64,000 nucleotides of DNA from Roseomonas sp. (GTDB lineage Bacteria > Pseudomonadota > Alphaproteobacteria > Acetobacterales > Acetobacteraceae). The notes below the pieces were generated by a model that was not told where the DNA came from, did no database searches, and was given only the letters and a program-made list of their open reading frames with translations. A program made the translations under genes and the position numbers. This document shows, piece by piece, positions 25,666 through 30,551 of this stretch. The stretch lies in assembly GCA_020249265.1 (NCBI GenBank), contig JADCGA010000008.1, forward strand, positions 57,004-121,003. Reading direction: 5' to 3'. Positions within the stretch are counted from its first letter, which is position 1. Every line of letters begins with the position of its first letter.

Positions 25666-26745
25666 ATGGATGTTATCGAAGTCACAGGTCTTGCTGATTG
25701 GATAGGGCAATGGGTGCTCCCGACCATGGCGCCTTATGAACAACTCGTCGTTGCCCTGGAACAAAATGCAAACAACACGAGCAAGGTTCCGCTTCGCGAT
25801 TTGATGGAAGAATTGCGCATTTGGCTCAACGCAATGCCTGTTGAGCATTTGACCAAGCAACAGGCCGATCTCCTAGGAAAAATTGGAATTTACGAACTGC
25901 TCGGTAAGCCCGGCTGGCGCTTCATAGAAAAAACCGTAAAAGAAGGGAACTATGATCCTGCGACTACAGCTCAAGATAGCCGGCGGGCGAAGCAGGAACT
26001 CGATAAGCTTATCGTGCTTTTCGAACGAGTCAGGGCGTCGCTCAAAGATGTAATGATTGAGGGCGAGCCAATTTCTCAGAGTTCGGAGAAACTTGTCATT
26101 TTCCGAGTTCAGTTTGCGGGCGATGCGAGTATTAAAGATGTTGCGGACTTCAAGGAATCTGCTGCTGAATGGTATGATATAGCGAGAGGTATCACCCTGG
26201 CAGTATCTGCAAAGCCAGAGGATGTAGAGATTATTGGAGCCTCAACCGGCTCCATAATCGTTACTCTTCGAACAGCCCTCGCCGTTGCCATGCTGTTAGC
26301 TCTCATCATGAAGGAAGCAGCTGAAATTGTGAAAACGGGATACGAAATCGCGAAGTTGATCGAGGAGTGGAGTCCGAGGCAAATACTAAACAAAGACCTC
26401 GAGGAAGGAATCAAGAGTAGACAGCGGGAACTACACGAACACGGACCACAAGAAATCCTCAAAAAGATTAAGGAAATGCCGCCTTATGGCGGCATGTCAT
26501 CTGAAAATGAGGCAATACTAAAGAAATCAATTCAGAAATTTATTGAATTTTCAAGGAGGGGCGGCGATGTAGACATGATTCCTCCGCCTGCACCTATGAC
26601 TCCAGATGATGCCGACAAGGCAACAACAGAAGAATTAAGATCAACGATCAATGAAATCACGGAACAAGTGAGGCAAACACGCTTGATCAAGTCCGACACT
26701 CAAAGGCTGATTGAAAGTTCAAAAACTGATGGGGATATAGGCTGA
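25666..26745 (+). CDS. Hypothetical protein (359 aa), low-GC islet
   Basis: Long ORF with GGAGG RBS; GC about 40-50% in sampled lines; AT-rich flanks. Confidence 0.85.
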   Translation: MDVIEVTGLADWIGQWVLPTMAPYEQLVVALEQNANNTSKVPLRDLMEELRIWLNAMPVEHLTKQQADLLGKIGIYELLGKPGWRFIEKTVKEGNYDPATTAQDSRRAKQELDKLIVLFERVRASLKDVMIEGEPISQSSEKLVIFRVQFAGDASIKDVADFKESAAEWYDIARGITLAVSAKPEDVEIIGASTGSIIVTLRTALAVAMLLALIMKEAAEIVKTGYEIAKLIEEWSPRQILNKDLEEGIKSRQRELHEHGPQEILKKIKEMPPYGGMSSENEAILKKSIQKFIEFSRRGGDVDMIPPPAPMTPDDADKATTEELRSTINEITEQVRQTRLIKSDTQRLIESSKTDGDIG

Positions 26746-26875: not shown

Positions 26876-27457
26876 TCACACCCGCGGCACCGCCACCCCA
26901 ACCAACGCATCCCGCGTCACAATTCCCGCCAACTTCTCCGCACTCCACCCCTCCGTCCCAGCGGGCCGCATCGGCAGCACCATCCAGCGATAATCCGCCG
27001 TGCTATCCACCACGCGGATTTCCACATCATCGGGGATTTGCGTGCCCCATTCCGCCAGCACCGCGCGGGGTTCGCGCACGGCGCGTGACCGATAGGCGAA
27101 GGATTTGTACCAGCCGGGCGGGTAGCCCAACAGCGCGCGCGGGTAACAGGAACAGAGCGTACAGACCACCAAATGATGCTGCTTTGGCGTATTTTCCAAA
27201 ACACCAAGTTCCGGGGCGCCGGCCACGGAAGCACCCGCCGCCTCAGCCGCGGCCTTACCGTCACGCATCAGCAGCGCGTAGTAATCAGGATCGGTCCAGG
27301 CGCGGGCCACCATGCGCGCTCCGATCTCGGGGCTCGCACGATCCGTGATCGCCTGGCGTTCGGCGATTTCAGCCTCAGTCACCAGCCCTTTGGCGGAGAG
27401 TGCGGCAACCAGCTTGTCGAGCAGCGCGAGGTTTACGCCAGAGGGGGGCGCGGCCAT
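26876..27457 (-). CDS. Nitrile hydratase alpha / thiocyanate hydrolase gamma-type metal-binding subunit
   Basis: GARMVARAWTDP, VCTLCSCYPR cobalt-type motif, WYKSFAYRSRAVREPR, VTRDALVGV. Confidence 0.92.
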   Translation of the reverse strand: MAAPPSGVNLALLDKLVAALSAKGLVTEAEIAERQAITDRASPEIGARMVARAWTDPDYYALLMRDGKAAAEAAGASVAGAPELGVLENTPKQHHLVVCTLCSCYPRALLGYPPGWYKSFAYRSRAVREPRAVLAEWGTQIPDDVEIRVVDSTADYRWMVLPMRPAGTEGWSAEKLAGIVTRDALVGVAVPRV

Positions 27458-27458
27458 G

Positions 27459-27752
27459 TCAGGCTTCCTCCAACCAATGTTCGAAGATTTCCACCATCAC
27501 CGTATCGCCGGCCTTACCCTCATTCCAAATGGGCGGCTGTTCGAACAGCACATGGTAAAGCTGCCGGCGCGGCGCCGGGCGGGCGAAGGCCAGGTCTTCC
27601 GGGTTGGGGAAGGCGCCCAGCGGGCGCACCACCTGGCCCAGCCGCCCGCGCACGTAATGGGGCGTGCGGATATGGCAGGGGCCACGGGTTTCGGGCCAAT
27701 CATCCTTCACGCGCACTTGCGCGCCAGGGGCGAAGCGTGGCGCGGTGTTCAT
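27459..27752 (-). CDS. Nitrile hydratase beta C-terminal (SH3-like) half, thiocyanate hydrolase alpha-type subunit
   Basis: FAPGAQVRV, HIRTPHYVRGRLG, LYHVLF...W, VEIFEHWLE. Confidence 0.88.
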   Translation of the reverse strand: MNTAPRFAPGAQVRVKDDWPETRGPCHIRTPHYVRGRLGQVVRPLGAFPNPEDLAFARPAPRRQLYHVLFEQPPIWNEGKAGDTVMVEIFEHWLEEA

Positions 27753-28042
27753 GCCAAATCCTCCTGCCGGATCACGCCTTTTTCGACCATGAGCGTCGCG
27801 ATGGAACGTAGCCAGCGTTCGTAATAGCCAAGCGCGAAATATTCATCCTGTGGGATGCTTTCGATGCCACGGCGAAGCTCATCCACCGTCATCATCTTCT
27901 TCTGCGCCAGGATTTGCCGAATGGCATCCACCTTCTTGCCGAAGGCATCGGGCGGAGCCTCATCATGCTCAACTGGGGTGCAGCGGAAGCGCGCAATCCC
28001 GCCTATGTCGTGCAGCGCGCGGTTGGGTGATTCCTCGGTCAT
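27749..28042 (-). CDS. Nitrile hydratase beta N-terminal half, thiocyanate hydrolase beta-type subunit
   Basis: HDIGG, VDELRRGIE, YYERWL, LMVEKGVI; ATGA overlap with the next gene. Confidence 0.88.
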   Translation of the reverse strand: MTEESPNRALHDIGGIARFRCTPVEHDEAPPDAFGKKVDAIRQILAQKKMMTVDELRRGIESIPQDEYFALGYYERWLRSIATLMVEKGVIRQEDLA

Positions 28043-28084: not shown

Positions 28085-28981
28085 TTATTTCACTTCCTCG
28101 GTCGGCCCCACGCCCCAGATATCGGCGCGCTTGATATAGCCCCGGAATTCGCCGATTTGCGCCTCACACCAGGGGCTATTGGCCTCACAGGCACGCAGCC
28201 GCCCCACCACGCCGGGGCGCAGCCGCGCGACGGGCTGCGCCTGATCCTCTGCCCGGCGGCGGAGCATGACCTCAGTGCCGGGCGCGCCACGCACCACAAA
28301 GGAACGCCGGCCCATCAGCGTTGATTGATGCACCCAGCCTTCCGTGCCTTCCGGGTCGCGGATGCGGCGCCAGAGTTCGAATTCGCGCACGATTTCCACC
28401 GGTAGTTCGCGGCGCTGATAGGTCCATTCAATGGGGAAGCGCGTGCCCGGGCCGCTGCGCATATTCACCTCATCCGAACGCAGCGCGGCAAAACGCGGCA
28501 GCGGCAGGCCCGAGATGGACCCGATGGTAGGGGCGCGTTCCGCTGGCGGGGGGGGCGCGGGCGTGGGCTCGGCTGGTTTGGCAGCGCCGGCGGTGACGGC
28601 GGCGCCCGCAGCGGCGCCGGCCGCAACACCCGCGGCAGCGCCGGCGGCGGCGCGATTGCCCTGGCCCGCTTGTGGCTGACCGGCGGGGCGTTGTTGCTGC
28701 CCTGCCTGACGCTGCTGTTGCCCAGGCGGGCGCTGCTGTTGTTGCGCAGCCGGCGGACGCTGCTGCCCCTCCGCATTGCGTTGCGTCGCCTGGGGTCTCG
28801 GCGGCGGATTGACCACCGGCGGGCGCGGTTCTGGCCGTTGCTGCGCGGCAGGCGCAGGCGCGGCGGGTGCGGCCTGGCGCGGCGGCGGCACATTCTGCGC
28901 GCCCCCCAGGCTTGATTGGCCAAAGGCCGGCGCGGCCAGCAGCAGTGCGCTCAGAAACGGCAAAAGGCGGTGAGGATGCAT
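28085..28981 (-). CDS. Exported protein with tandem bacterial SH3 domains and a Pro/Gln/Ala low-complexity linker
   Basis: Signal peptide; LPLPRFAALRSDEVNMRSGPG...WRRIRDPEGTEGWVHQS; second SH3 ending WCEAQ...RGY. Confidence 0.88.
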   Translation of the reverse strand: MHPHRLLPFLSALLLAAPAFGQSSLGGAQNVPPPRQAAPAAPAPAAQQRPEPRPPVVNPPPRPQATQRNAEGQQRPPAAQQQQRPPGQQQRQAGQQQRPAGQPQAGQGNRAAAGAAAGVAAGAAAGAAVTAGAAKPAEPTPAPPPPAERAPTIGSISGLPLPRFAALRSDEVNMRSGPGTRFPIEWTYQRRELPVEIVREFELWRRIRDPEGTEGWVHQSTLMGRRSFVVRGAPGTEVMLRRRAEDQAQPVARLRPGVVGRLRACEANSPWCEAQIGEFRGYIKRADIWGVGPTEEVK

Positions 28982-29039
28982 AGTAACATTTCTTCCGCCC
29001 CTGAGGGCCAAGGTCAAGCATTACTTGTGACCAAGCGCC

Positions 29040-30551
29040 TCAAACCCTGGAACTTGGCCGGTAGAAGAGTTCATGCCGGGAAGGATCAATGTATTCGGCA
29101 TAGAATCGCTTGGCATGGGGCAGCAGCGCCTTGGAAAGCTGGCGCCGTTCCACCTCATCATCCGCCAAAGCGCGGGACAGATCATCATGCAAAGCCTTCA
29201 GCACTGAGTCGCGGTCCACCCGCGTGAAGCGGCCTTCCTGATAAATCACTTCGCCATCACACATCACTGCGCGCACGGCGCTGGCCTTGGCGCGCTGCAC
29301 CACCGCATCCAGGGTAGGGGTGAGTTCATCCAGATAGGGATAGGCGATGCTGTCCCAATCAATGAGCGACAAATCCGCCCCCTTGCCCACTTCCAGCGTG
29401 CCGAGGCTATCGCGCCAGGAAGTGGTGCGCGCACCGCCAACCGTTGCCATGCGCAGCACCTGGCCCATGCCGGGCACGTCATCATCGCCCATGCCTGGCA
29501 CGCGATGGGCGCGCAGCACCAGGCGCAATTCCTGGAGCATGTCGCGGTCATCATTGATGCCGGCCTCATCCAGCCCAATCGCCGTATTGATGCCCTTGGC
29601 TTCGAAGCGATTGAGCGACGCCACACCGGAACGCAGTCGGAAATTGGAAGAACAATTATGGCAAATGCAGGTGCCGGTTTCGGCGAGGCGATCAATATCC
29701 TTCTCATTCAGCCAGACACCATGGCCGAGGGTCATATTCGGCCCCAGCAAGCCGAAGCGATCAAGATATTCCACCGCCGTGCCGCCGCCGCGGCGGCGCG
29801 CATATTCCTTCTGATAGGCGGTTTCCACCAGATGCATATGGATCGGCGCATCATGACTGCGTGAAAGCTCCGCCATCGCCGCCAAAGCCTTATCGGAACA
29901 CCAATGCAGATTGGCCGGCGCCAATTGCACGCGCACGCGGCGCTTGGGGTTGTGGGTGCCGTGAAGGCTACGGAACAGGTCCAGATTATCTTCCAGCGTC
30001 AATTGAAAGCGGTCAAACCAGCGCTGCATCGGCCCGCGCAATTCAGGCGGCAGGCTGGCCACGAAATCCTGATCCGCCTGATAGACCAGTCGGTTCTGAT
30101 CACGCAGCGCGAAGCAATAGGAAACGCGCATGCCAATTTCTTCATACGCGCGGATCACCTCGCCCGCGCGTTTTTCCACATCGGGCAGCCTGCCCGGCGC
30201 CCAGCCATGCAAATGCTGCACGGTGGTGATGCCAGACCCGATCATCTCAAAGGCGGAATAGAGCGTATCGAGATAGGGGTTCACATTGCGCGCGGCCATG
30301 CGCGTGACGAACCAAAGCTCCAGCGGCATATGGGGTGAGCCCAATTGCACCGGCATCAGCCCGACATGGTGATGCGCATTGACAAAGCATGGCAGCATGA
30401 CCTCGCGCCCAGACACCACCACCGGCACATGCGGGTGCTTGCGGCGCAGAACTCCATAGGTACCGATCTCGGCGATGATGCCATCTTCCTGGATCAGCGC
30501 GCCATCGGCGTTTTCCTCCCAGACGGTGGCCGAGAGGGTTTTGGTGATCAC
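29040..30551 (-). CDS. Metal-dependent amidohydrolase (AtzA/TrzA/deaminase-like)
   Basis: PCFVNAHHH, HMHLVET, HGVW, HNCSSN..LRSG, GLD, GTLEVGKGAD; GTG start uncertain. Confidence 0.85.
   Translation of the reverse strand: MITKTLSATVWEENADGALIQEDGIIAEIGTYGVLRRKHPHVPVVVSGREVMLPCFVNAHHHVGLMPVQLGSPHMPLELWFVTRMAARNVNPYLDTLYSAFEMIGSGITTVQHLHGWAPGRLPDVEKRAGEVIRAYEEIGMRVSYCFALRDQNRLVYQADQDFVASLPPELRGPMQRWFDRFQLTLEDNLDLFRSLHGTHNPKRRVRVQLAPANLHWCSDKALAAMAELSRSHDAPIHMHLVETAYQKEYARRRGGGTAVEYLDRFGLLGPNMTLGHGVWLNEKDIDRLAETGTCICHNCSSNFRLRSGVASLNRFEAKGINTAIGLDEAGINDDRDMLQELRLVLRAHRVPGMGDDDVPGMGQVLRMATVGGARTTSWRDSLGTLEVGKGADLSLIDWDSIAYPYLDELTPTLDAVVQRAKASAVRAVMCDGEVIYQEGRFTRVDRDSVLKALHDDLSRALADDEVERRQLSKALLPHAKRFYAEYIDPSRHELFYRPSSRV

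Follow-up and report, generated by a model that had tools for sequence, protein, structure and literature searches.

The window analyzed here, a stretch of 64,000 nucleotides of Roseomonas sp. DNA, carries on its minus strand three adjoining genes of the nitrile hydratase (NHase) family, with a gene for a secreted protein directly upstream. The genes and the features discussed below, in the order in which the minus strand is read, are as follows.

28085-29017, minus strand: upstream gene for a secreted SH3_4 (DUF1058) protein (PF06347, E = 1.3e-25), ending 42 nt before beta-N
27749-28042, minus strand: beta-N gene, 97 aa, encoding the N-terminal half of the beta subunit (Pfam PF21006 NHase_beta_N, E = 1e-16)
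27869-27883, minus strand: D54-E-L56-R57-R58 (DELRR) of beta-N, placed by gap-free HMMER alignment to 1ahj_B/2ahj_B and by MAFFT
27749-27752, minus strand: ATGA stop/start overlap of beta-N and beta-C, from inspection of the sequence
27459-27752, minus strand: beta-C gene, 97 aa, encoding the C-terminal, SH3-like half of the beta subunit (PF02211 NHase_beta_C, E = 1.3e-17)
26876-27457, minus strand: alpha (metal) subunit gene, 193 aa (PF02979 NHase_alpha, E = 2.3e-74)
27137-27163, minus strand: metal claw C99-T-L-C102-S103-C104-Y-P-R107 of alpha, from the sequence and alignment with 2dd4_C, AnhA, PtNHase and ReNHase

An earlier note on this DNA had described a beta subunit split into two genes and followed by the metal subunit, all tightly coupled, and the open reading frames bear out that description to the nucleotide. 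The ATGA overlap of beta-N and beta-C is a sequence feature indicating translational coupling, and the stop of beta-C and the start of alpha run together as TGAcATG, with a spacer of 1 nt at position 27458. Shine-Dalgarno-like AGGAGG and GGAGGA sites lie 5' of beta-C and alpha. All three reading frames are intact, and every catalytic residue is present, as seen in matches to Pfam, NCBIfam and PDB entries and in the alignments. Members of the cluster are named "nitrile hydratase (subunit alpha/beta)" in public databases.

The two motifs on which the earlier description turned, VCTLCSCYPR in alpha and DELRR in beta-N, were both found in the translations. VCTLCSCY spans alpha residues 98 to 105, and its Thr/Tyr claw variant, CTLCSCY, would by the motif rule mark a Co-type enzyme, against CSLCSCT in the Fe type; the Co-type assignment made before agrees with the Co-type NHases in the PDB. 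The Arg after CSCYP had been equated with gamma-R136 of thiocyanate hydrolase (SCNase), and an alignment with SCNase and Co-NHase sequences supports this, since R107 aligns with gamma-R136 (MAFFT; 2dd4_C PDB numbering) and with PtNHase alpha-W116. Over its whole length, alpha scored 240.8 bits against TIGR01323, just below the equivalog cut-off of 249.85, and comparison with PDB sequences gave 170 to 190 bits for NHases and 162 bits for the SCNase gamma subunit. A direct homologue search with alpha returned only near-identical metagenome sequences (94 to 100% identity).

Two beta arginines of NHases (beta-R56 and beta-R141 in Fe numbering) hydrogen-bond the oxidized claw cysteines, and the window proteins contain counterparts of both. 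R57 of beta-N is the catalytic Arg, equivalent to SCNase beta-R91 and to Fe-NHase beta-R56, whose role is described in PMC7193024. R29 of beta-C, within the HIR motif (H27-I-R29), is the equivalent of Fe-NHase beta-R141 in an alignment to 1ahj_B residues 122 to 211, and Y73 of beta-N aligns, again free of gaps against 1ahj_B, with the catalytic Tyr, Fe-NHase beta-Y72. The proposal that Leu replaces SCNase beta-R90 also stands, as L56 of DELRR occupies that pocket position in the MAFFT alignments. Among characterized proteins, beta-N is the equivalent of AnhD and ScnB, and beta-C of AnhE and ScnA. In a profile search, beta-C was the sole NHase_beta_C gene across the genome, and the C terminus of beta-N gave a weak match to the nitrile_acc model.

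No P14K/P15K/NhlE-type activator gene adjoins the cassette, as had been remarked before, and a search of the 99.87%-complete genome was likewise negative for such genes elsewhere. PF21006 gave two matches in the genome, both of them beta-N domains; TIGR03889 gave none above its cut-off, and a P15K query matched nothing. Given a genome lacking a P14K/P15K-type activator, cobalt would most likely be loaded directly, and beta-N is predicted as a likely built-in maturation chaperone.

Gene neighborhoods were compared in three sets of loci, namely 16 loci of the window clade, 20 orthologous loci from other genera of the family, and 120 listed loci with CTLCSCYPR. The only neighbors recurring within the family were genes for SH3_4, MoeB/ThiF and DsrE-like proteins, and the only ones recurring more widely among the 120 loci listed were a P15K-like gene (18 loci) and an ABC ATPase (7 loci). 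In 14 of 21 genera the SH3_4 gene immediately precedes the NHase genes, and a terminator-like site on the minus strand between it and beta-N was not found; the association is probably one of synteny and not of function. Amidase, aldoxime dehydratase and transporter genes were not conserved beside the window-type cassette in any of the three sets, nor did the neighborhoods in these sets give a clue to the substrate. An amidohydrolase gene at 29040-30551 was considered as a partner and rejected because its synteny was seen only in the closest relative. As an incidental observation, no que-like genes stood out in the conserved neighborhood.

A scan for CTLCSCYPR found the motif in at least 120 species genomes, which provided one locus set for counting layouts and residues. 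A split beta subunit in the gene order of the window was present in 81 of the 120 loci listed. The order does match scnB-scnA-scnC, as the earlier note held, but the layout extends beyond SCNase to these loci and to AnhD-AnhE-AnhA of Streptomyces canus. At the beta-90 position, Leu was the commonest residue among the loci listed (48), with Met at 12 and Arg at 10. The pairing of alpha Arg with beta Leu had been called a hybrid signature; it proves to be the majority state among the CTLCSCYPR loci listed and is fixed in this bacterial family. Of 121 genomes sampled across the family, 73 (about 60%) have orthologues of the cassette, defined by a beta-C identity of at least 58%, and among 21 orthologous loci of the family, CTLCSCYPR is present in all 21 and DELRR in 19. 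Active-site motifs that are invariant or nearly so, together with retention in 73 of 121 genomes, imply selection for function. In an IQ-TREE tree of alpha sequences, the window clade (SH-aLRT 99) falls within a split-beta supergroup (SH-aLRT 96), and the SCNase clade (SH-aLRT 100) is separate from it. A literature search turned up no paper dealing with NHases from Acetobacteraceae or Roseomonas, or with this YPR split-beta clade.

The split-beta layout and the active-site Arg are thus normal for a large, little-studied branch, which argues for an enzyme of a known type and against an SCNase hybrid. We consider it probable that the locus encodes a cobalt NHase of the split-beta, activator-less type, with a beta-N/beta-C/alpha heterotrimeric protomer and non-corrin cobalt. 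An enzyme intermediate between SCNase and NHase, as suggested earlier, did not emerge, there being no special kinship to SCNase in either sequence identity (44% to ScnC) or tree position. In the mechanism we propose, alpha C99, C102, S103 and C104 would bind Co(III), C102 would be oxidized to the sulfinate and C104 to the sulfenate, and R57 of beta-N and R29 of beta-C would hydrogen-bond the sulfinate and sulfenate oxygens. The pocket would be lined by Y73 and W77 of beta-N and by R107 of alpha, and a nitrile would coordinate the metal and then be hydrated to the amide. A cationic R107 and a hydrophobic L56 in one pocket would favor a small polar or partly anionic nitrile over thiocyanate, and the natural substrate is, on this basis, probably a polar nitrile.

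It is possible, although we would not count on it, that the activator-less split-beta enzymes with alpha Arg and beta Leu form a distinct specificity class of NHase, whose substrate would be a small cyano compound, polar or anionic and ubiquitous, such as beta-cyanoalanine, a cyanoacetate-type acid or cyanamide. Such a class would serve housekeeping nitrogen scavenging or detoxification and not xenobiotic catabolism. Enzymes of this description are found in about 60% of the sampled genomes of the family; in many other phyla they are likewise common.

We think it rather unlikely that the Arg defines a specificity class for a nonclassical substrate, such as cyanamide, an isonitrile or the cyano group of a metabolite like beta-cyanoalanine or preQ0, on the NHase fold and metal centre. 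The Arg after CSCYP is conserved at all 21 orthologous loci, and YPR is the commonest state among the nearest 150 50%-identity clusters to alpha (62, against 24 with YPW). Wide retention in the family and the lack of catabolic neighbors would also suit housekeeping or scavenging better than xenobiotic degradation. However, the sequence names no substrate, and the residue after CSCYP is so variable across the NHase family (R, W, S, L, T, A, V, K, Y and others) that the Arg may tune specificity without redefining it; the remainder of the pocket (L56, Y73 and W77) is NHase-like.

That the enzyme is itself a thiocyanate hydrolase, by which a heterotroph would scavenge nitrogen or sulfur from SCN-, is very unlikely. 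SCNase catalyzes the reaction SCN- + 2 H2O -> COS + NH3 + OH-, and functional roles of its R90 and R136 were reportedly the subject of work by Yamanaka et al. in 2013 (J Biosci Bioeng). The likeness to ScnB-ScnA-ScnC of T. thioparus (PDB 2DD4/2DD5) is real, comprising the split beta subunit, the order beta-N, beta-C, alpha, the Co-type CTLCSCYPR claw with its equivalent of gamma-R136 (a residue probed in 3VYG, where chain 3vyg_C is the R136W mutant), and a conserved catalytic Arg pair and Tyr. Against it, EERRR is invariant at 80 of 80 true SCNase loci where the window enzyme has DELRR, with Leu in place of beta-R90, and the P15K activator gene downstream of gamma, seen at 74 of those 80 loci, is missing from the window genome. 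Identities to ScnC, ScnB and ScnA are 44, 30 and 34% for alpha, beta-N and beta-C, and at 44% the window alpha is no closer to ScnC than classical NHases are. The score of alpha against TIGR03887 (thiocyan_alph) was 195.6 bits, below the cut-off of 291.45, and alpha falls outside the ScnC clade. The window proteins also lack the 11-residue gamma insertion, the His-rich termini and the N-terminal extensions of ScnB (about 40 residues) and ScnA (about 27 residues), and the ABC transporter that adjoins scnBAC has no counterpart beside the window cassette. Among the CTLCSCYPR matches listed, the 10 loci that have Arg at beta-90 each come with a P15K-like activator gene and an alpha subunit 64 to 87% identical to ScnC; P15K-like genes were seen at no locus with an alpha below 64% identity to ScnC. 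That value is also the lower bound for SCNase-like alphas, and the others reach at most 51%, two loci cut by contig ends aside. A noncatalytic or decaying remnant, such as an NHLP/RiPP-type leftover or pseudo-enzyme, is scarcely credible. Alpha does match the NHLP leader-peptide model TIGR03793 at 63 bits, but this reflects the ancestry that such leaders are known to have and is no evidence of a RiPP locus; alpha is of full length and its claw is intact, and the three coupled frames are intact and strongly conserved across 73 genomes.

The annotation of the locus as a nitrile hydratase was already public, and an S. canus enzyme of this architecture has been purified and studied. The comparison gives a rule for telling real SCNases from their far commoner look-alikes, in that beta-R90, a P15K gene and an alpha at least 64% identical to ScnC occur together, and Arg after CSCYP alone is no signature of thiocyanate hydrolysis. 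This rule should be useful in annotating metagenomes from thiocyanate and cyanide bioremediation. The branch to which the window enzyme belongs is large and phylogenetically widespread, making it a reasonable target for substrate screens, and it has cultivable hosts in Acidiphilium iwatense, Roseicella and Siccirubricoccus.

Among known NHases, the classical two-subunit Co-type enzymes of Pseudonocardia thermophila (1IRE) and P. putida (3QXE) share the fold, the claw and the catalytic residues, and the window alpha is 45% identical to PtNHase alpha. They differ in having a single-polypeptide beta subunit, Trp after CSCYP and a downstream P14K-type activator gene, and they fall on the opposite side of the main tree split from the window alpha. 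ToyJKL, the toyocamycin NHase of Streptomyces rimosus, is reported to have three subunits as well, with alpha alone catalytically competent (cited in PMC7329996). The closest match is ScNHase (AnhD-AnhE-AnhA) of S. canus CGMCC 13662, an enzyme that requires Co but no activator for its activity, that has AnhD as its chaperone, and whose known substrates are all xenobiotics, namely acetamiprid, thiacloprid and benzonitrile (PMC7329996). Its host is actinobacterial and that of the window enzyme alphaproteobacterial; AnhA branches at the base of the split-beta supergroup and belongs to another clade than the window alpha, with CSCYPL where the window has CSCYPR, and AnhD has NEFRD instead of DELRR. 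With Leu and not Arg after CSCYP in AnhA, the pocket of the window enzyme would differ from that of its only characterized close analogue. The two systems nevertheless agree in subunit size (10.4, 11.4 and 21.3 kDa for AnhD, AnhE and AnhA [PMC7329996]; 97, 97 and 193 aa in the window), in the gene order beta-N, beta-C, alpha, in overlapping stop and start codons, in a Co-type claw and in genomes free of an activator gene. Identities to AnhA, AnhD and AnhE are 52, 34 and 38%, so that all three window subunits are closer to ScNHase than to ScnC, ScnB and ScnA.

The three reading frames that an earlier note had assigned to a nitrile hydratase (NHase) with a split beta subunit were found exactly where it placed them, each matching its own Pfam family. 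They lie among the following features.

25666-26745, plus strand: 359-aa ORF in an AT-rich stretch, no Pfam match, immediately downstream of the alpha gene
26876-27457, minus strand: alpha (metal subunit), 193 aa, Pfam NHase_alpha, E 2.3e-74
27459-27752, minus strand: beta-C, 97 aa, Pfam NHase_beta_C, E 1.3e-17
27749-28042, minus strand: beta-N, 97 aa, Pfam NHase_beta_N, E 1e-16
28085-29017, minus strand: secreted SH3_4 (DUF1058) protein with a long Pro/Gln/Ala-rich linker, nearest upstream neighbor
29040-30551, minus strand: 503-aa Amidohydro_1-family protein, two genes upstream of the NHase
Contig C67 of the same genome (locus L001), 199-1200: single beta-N~linker~alpha protein, 333 aa

Both small proteins match one NCBIfam model, nitrile_beta, the first over positions 3-91 and the second over 134-226, and so correspond to the halves of an ordinary beta subunit. 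An ATGA stop/start overlap joins beta-N to beta-C (27752-27749), the beta-C to alpha junction reads TGAcATG, and the beta-C and alpha starts are preceded, at 8-9 nt, by AGGAGG and GGAGGA sites; the three genes are thus translationally coupled, in agreement with the tight coupling noted before. Both motifs described earlier were also read, the alpha claw as V-C99-T-L-C102-S103-C104-Y-P-R107 and the beta-N motif as D54-E-L-R-R58. HMMER alignments to solved NHases ran without gaps around the catalytic residues, placing Fe-NHase beta-R56, which is required for activity (PMC7193024), on beta-N R57, beta-Y72 on beta-N Y73, and H139-I-R141 on beta-C H27-I-R29. The Thr and Tyr of the claw are those of the cobalt NHases in the PDB, the Fe enzymes having CSLCSCT, and the machinery is complete for a functional Co-type enzyme. 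Just N-terminal of the catalytic HIR, the beta-C of this clade has an insertion of four residues together with a conserved Cys (WPETRGPCHIR, residues 18-29, window 27668-27700). This stretch is nearly invariant in 21 genera, and its equivalent in AnhE of Streptomyces canus, ScnA of Thiobacillus thioparus thiocyanate hydrolase (SCNase) and Fe-NHase beta has neither the insertion nor the Cys.

Yamanaka et al. reportedly found in 2013 that two arginines, beta-R90 and gamma-R136, control SCNase selectivity. Gamma numbering was taken from PDB 2dd4_C (C128-T-L-C131-S-C133-Y-P-R136), the sole other deposited gamma sequence, 3vyg_C, being the R136W mutant. The comparison set comprised 80 genomic SCNase operons, among them that of T. 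thioparus DSM 505 (L146), in which scnB, scnA, scnC and a gene resembling the activator P15K were read directly. MAFFT aligned R136 with alpha R107, and ScnB T86-A-E-E-R90-R91-R92 with beta-N T-V-D-E-L-R-R, so that the proposed R136 equivalence and the Leu at the R90 position both held.

The earlier note had read this combination as a hybrid signature of intermediate or unknown specificity. A DNA-pattern scan for C-T-L-C-S-C-Y-P-R, with one genome per species, gave at least 120 loci, and the matches listed span Pseudomonadota, Actinomycetota, Chloroflexota, Binatota, Rubrobacter and even a Nitrososphaeraceae archaeon, among many phyla. Among these listed matches, 81 of 120 encode beta-N, beta-C and alpha in three genes ordered as here, four have a beta-N~alpha fusion, four have the order beta-C, alpha, beta-N (L024, L058, L060 and L061), and most of the remainder end at contig edges. 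The beta-R90 column of the listed matches holds Leu in 48, Met in 12, Arg in 10 and Lys in 4, with others scattered; EERRR occurs in all 80 true SCNases. Of the 150 50%-identity clusters nearest the window alpha, 62 have Arg and 24 have Trp directly after CSCYP, the residues in the others including S, L, T, A, V, K and Y. By these frequencies, alpha-Arg with beta-Leu is the pairing most often found in a large branch and not an intermediate, so while the genes, motifs and equivalences reported earlier stand, the hybrid reading built on them does not.

Among the matches listed, an Arg at beta-90 and a P15K-like ORF downstream of alpha occur together in 10 of 10 loci, and no P15K-like ORF was found in listed CTLCSCYPR loci with any other residue there. 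Alphas of P15K-positive loci (Sulfuritalea, Mycobacterium, Nocardia and Rhodococcus daqingensis included) are 64-87% identical to ScnC, and those of P15K-negative loci at most 51%, except for two loci cut at a contig end. A useful by-product is a three-feature rule (beta-R90, presence of a P15K gene, and alpha identity to ScnC of 64% or more) that sorts genuine SCNases from abundant CSCYPR look-alikes. The window enzyme has Leu at beta-90, no P15K gene, an alpha 44% identical to ScnC (AnhA, PtNHase and ReNHase, the last two classical enzymes, score 43%, 41% and 45%) and a TIGR03887 score of 195.6 bits against a cut-off of 291; it lacks three of the four SCNase features testable here. The gamma insertion of 11 residues is absent too, as are the extensions that ScnB and ScnA have at their N termini. 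SCNase identity was rejected on these grounds and is, in our estimation, very improbable.

The SCNase-like family extends to Mycobacterium, Nocardia, R. daqingensis, Sulfuritalea and others (Actinomycetota loci L010, L027, L035, L043, L073, L076, L085, L102 and L107; further loci L029, L040, L055, L086, L108 and L120), with alphas 64-87% identical to T. thioparus ScnC, a P15K-like gene, and Arg at beta-90 in every locus where the position is readable. In some Mycobacterium loci (L027, L085 and L107), beta-N and beta-C matches fall within one open frame, which suggests an unsplit beta.

An IQ-TREE (LG+C20) analysis of 84 alphas set the classical two-subunit enzymes, both Co (YPW) and Fe, apart from a split-beta/fusion supergroup (SH-aLRT 96 with the basal branch AnhA left out). 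This supergroup contains the SCNase clade (SH-aLRT 100, on a long stem) and, apart from it, the window clade (SH-aLRT 99), with no clear branching order between the two; a 236-row FastTree gave the same picture. The kinship with SCNase suggested earlier holds for this large supergroup as a whole and not below it. Sister to the window clade (SH-aLRT 84) is the C67 paralogue, in which a His/Asp-rich linker (HHHHHHDHDHDHDHDDH) connects beta-N to an alpha containing CTLCSCYPR. No beta-C gene accompanies it, the genome's only one being that of the window; the paralogue may either work without beta-C or use the window's. Its relatives are L005, L007, L033, L096 and L109; TctC-type receptor genes lie near this type of paralogue (on both sides in L007), and an Asp/Glu-racemase/arylmalonate-decarboxylase-family gene lies just downstream of it.

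Of 121 genomes sampled from the same GTDB family, essentially one per genus, 73 encode a beta-C orthologue (identity 58% or more); those without it are mostly small genomes. Across 21 orthologous loci (20 from other genera plus the window), beta-C is strikingly conserved, CTLCSCYPR is found in all and DELRR in 19; metagenomes hold very many near-identical copies, the named ones coming from Roseomonas MAGs. The cassette is an ancient gene set, inherited vertically and kept under selection. The SH3_4 gene is directly upstream in 14 of the 21 genera, and no terminator-like site was found on the minus strand between it and the cassette, so co-transcription is possible. Farther upstream, DsrE-like and MoeB/ThiF genes recur in 10 of 21. 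The Amidohydro_1 protein is probably unrelated to the NHase, since L052, the closest relative (93% identity), is the only one in which the two are syntenic. The 359-aa ORF breaks into what would have formed the operon's 3' flank. Among conserved neighbors across the orthologous and listed CTLCSCYPR loci, there is no amidase, aldoxime dehydratase, regulator or transporter that accompanies the cassette. The lack of an adjacent activator, noted before, extends to the whole genome: PF21006 matched the window beta-N, the beta-N domain of the contig 67 paralogue and nothing else, TIGR03889 gave no match above cut-off, and T. thioparus P15K as query gave none.

Alongside the architecture, residues, conservation and activator absence observed here, cobalt, Cys oxidation and self-swapping would be expected by analogy with AnhDEA and solved NHases; the enzyme would then be a Co(III) nitrile hydratase whose beta-N subunit doubles as a maturation helper. 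We consider it likely that it hydrates a nitrile to the amide, and the Arg/Leu pocket hints weakly at a small polar nitrile. In S. canus CGMCC 13662, the gene order is AnhD (beta-N, 10.4 kDa), AnhE (beta-C, 11.4 kDa) and AnhA (alpha, 21.3 kDa), the genome is without an activator, NHase activity is cobalt dependent, and AnhD acts as a metallochaperone and self-subunit-swapping chaperone, via AnhD2A (PMC7329996). A pattern search with the published primers retrieved this operon from two S. canus genomes. The window alpha is 52% identical to AnhA versus 44% to ScnC, beta-N 34% to AnhD versus 30% to ScnB, and beta-C 38% to AnhE versus 34% to ScnA, which points to AnhDEA as the closest characterized relative. 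AnhA has CSCYPL and AnhD NEFRD, whereas the window proteins have CSCYPR and DELRR, and the pockets therefore differ; the locus is an uncharacterized representative of an already known enzyme type.
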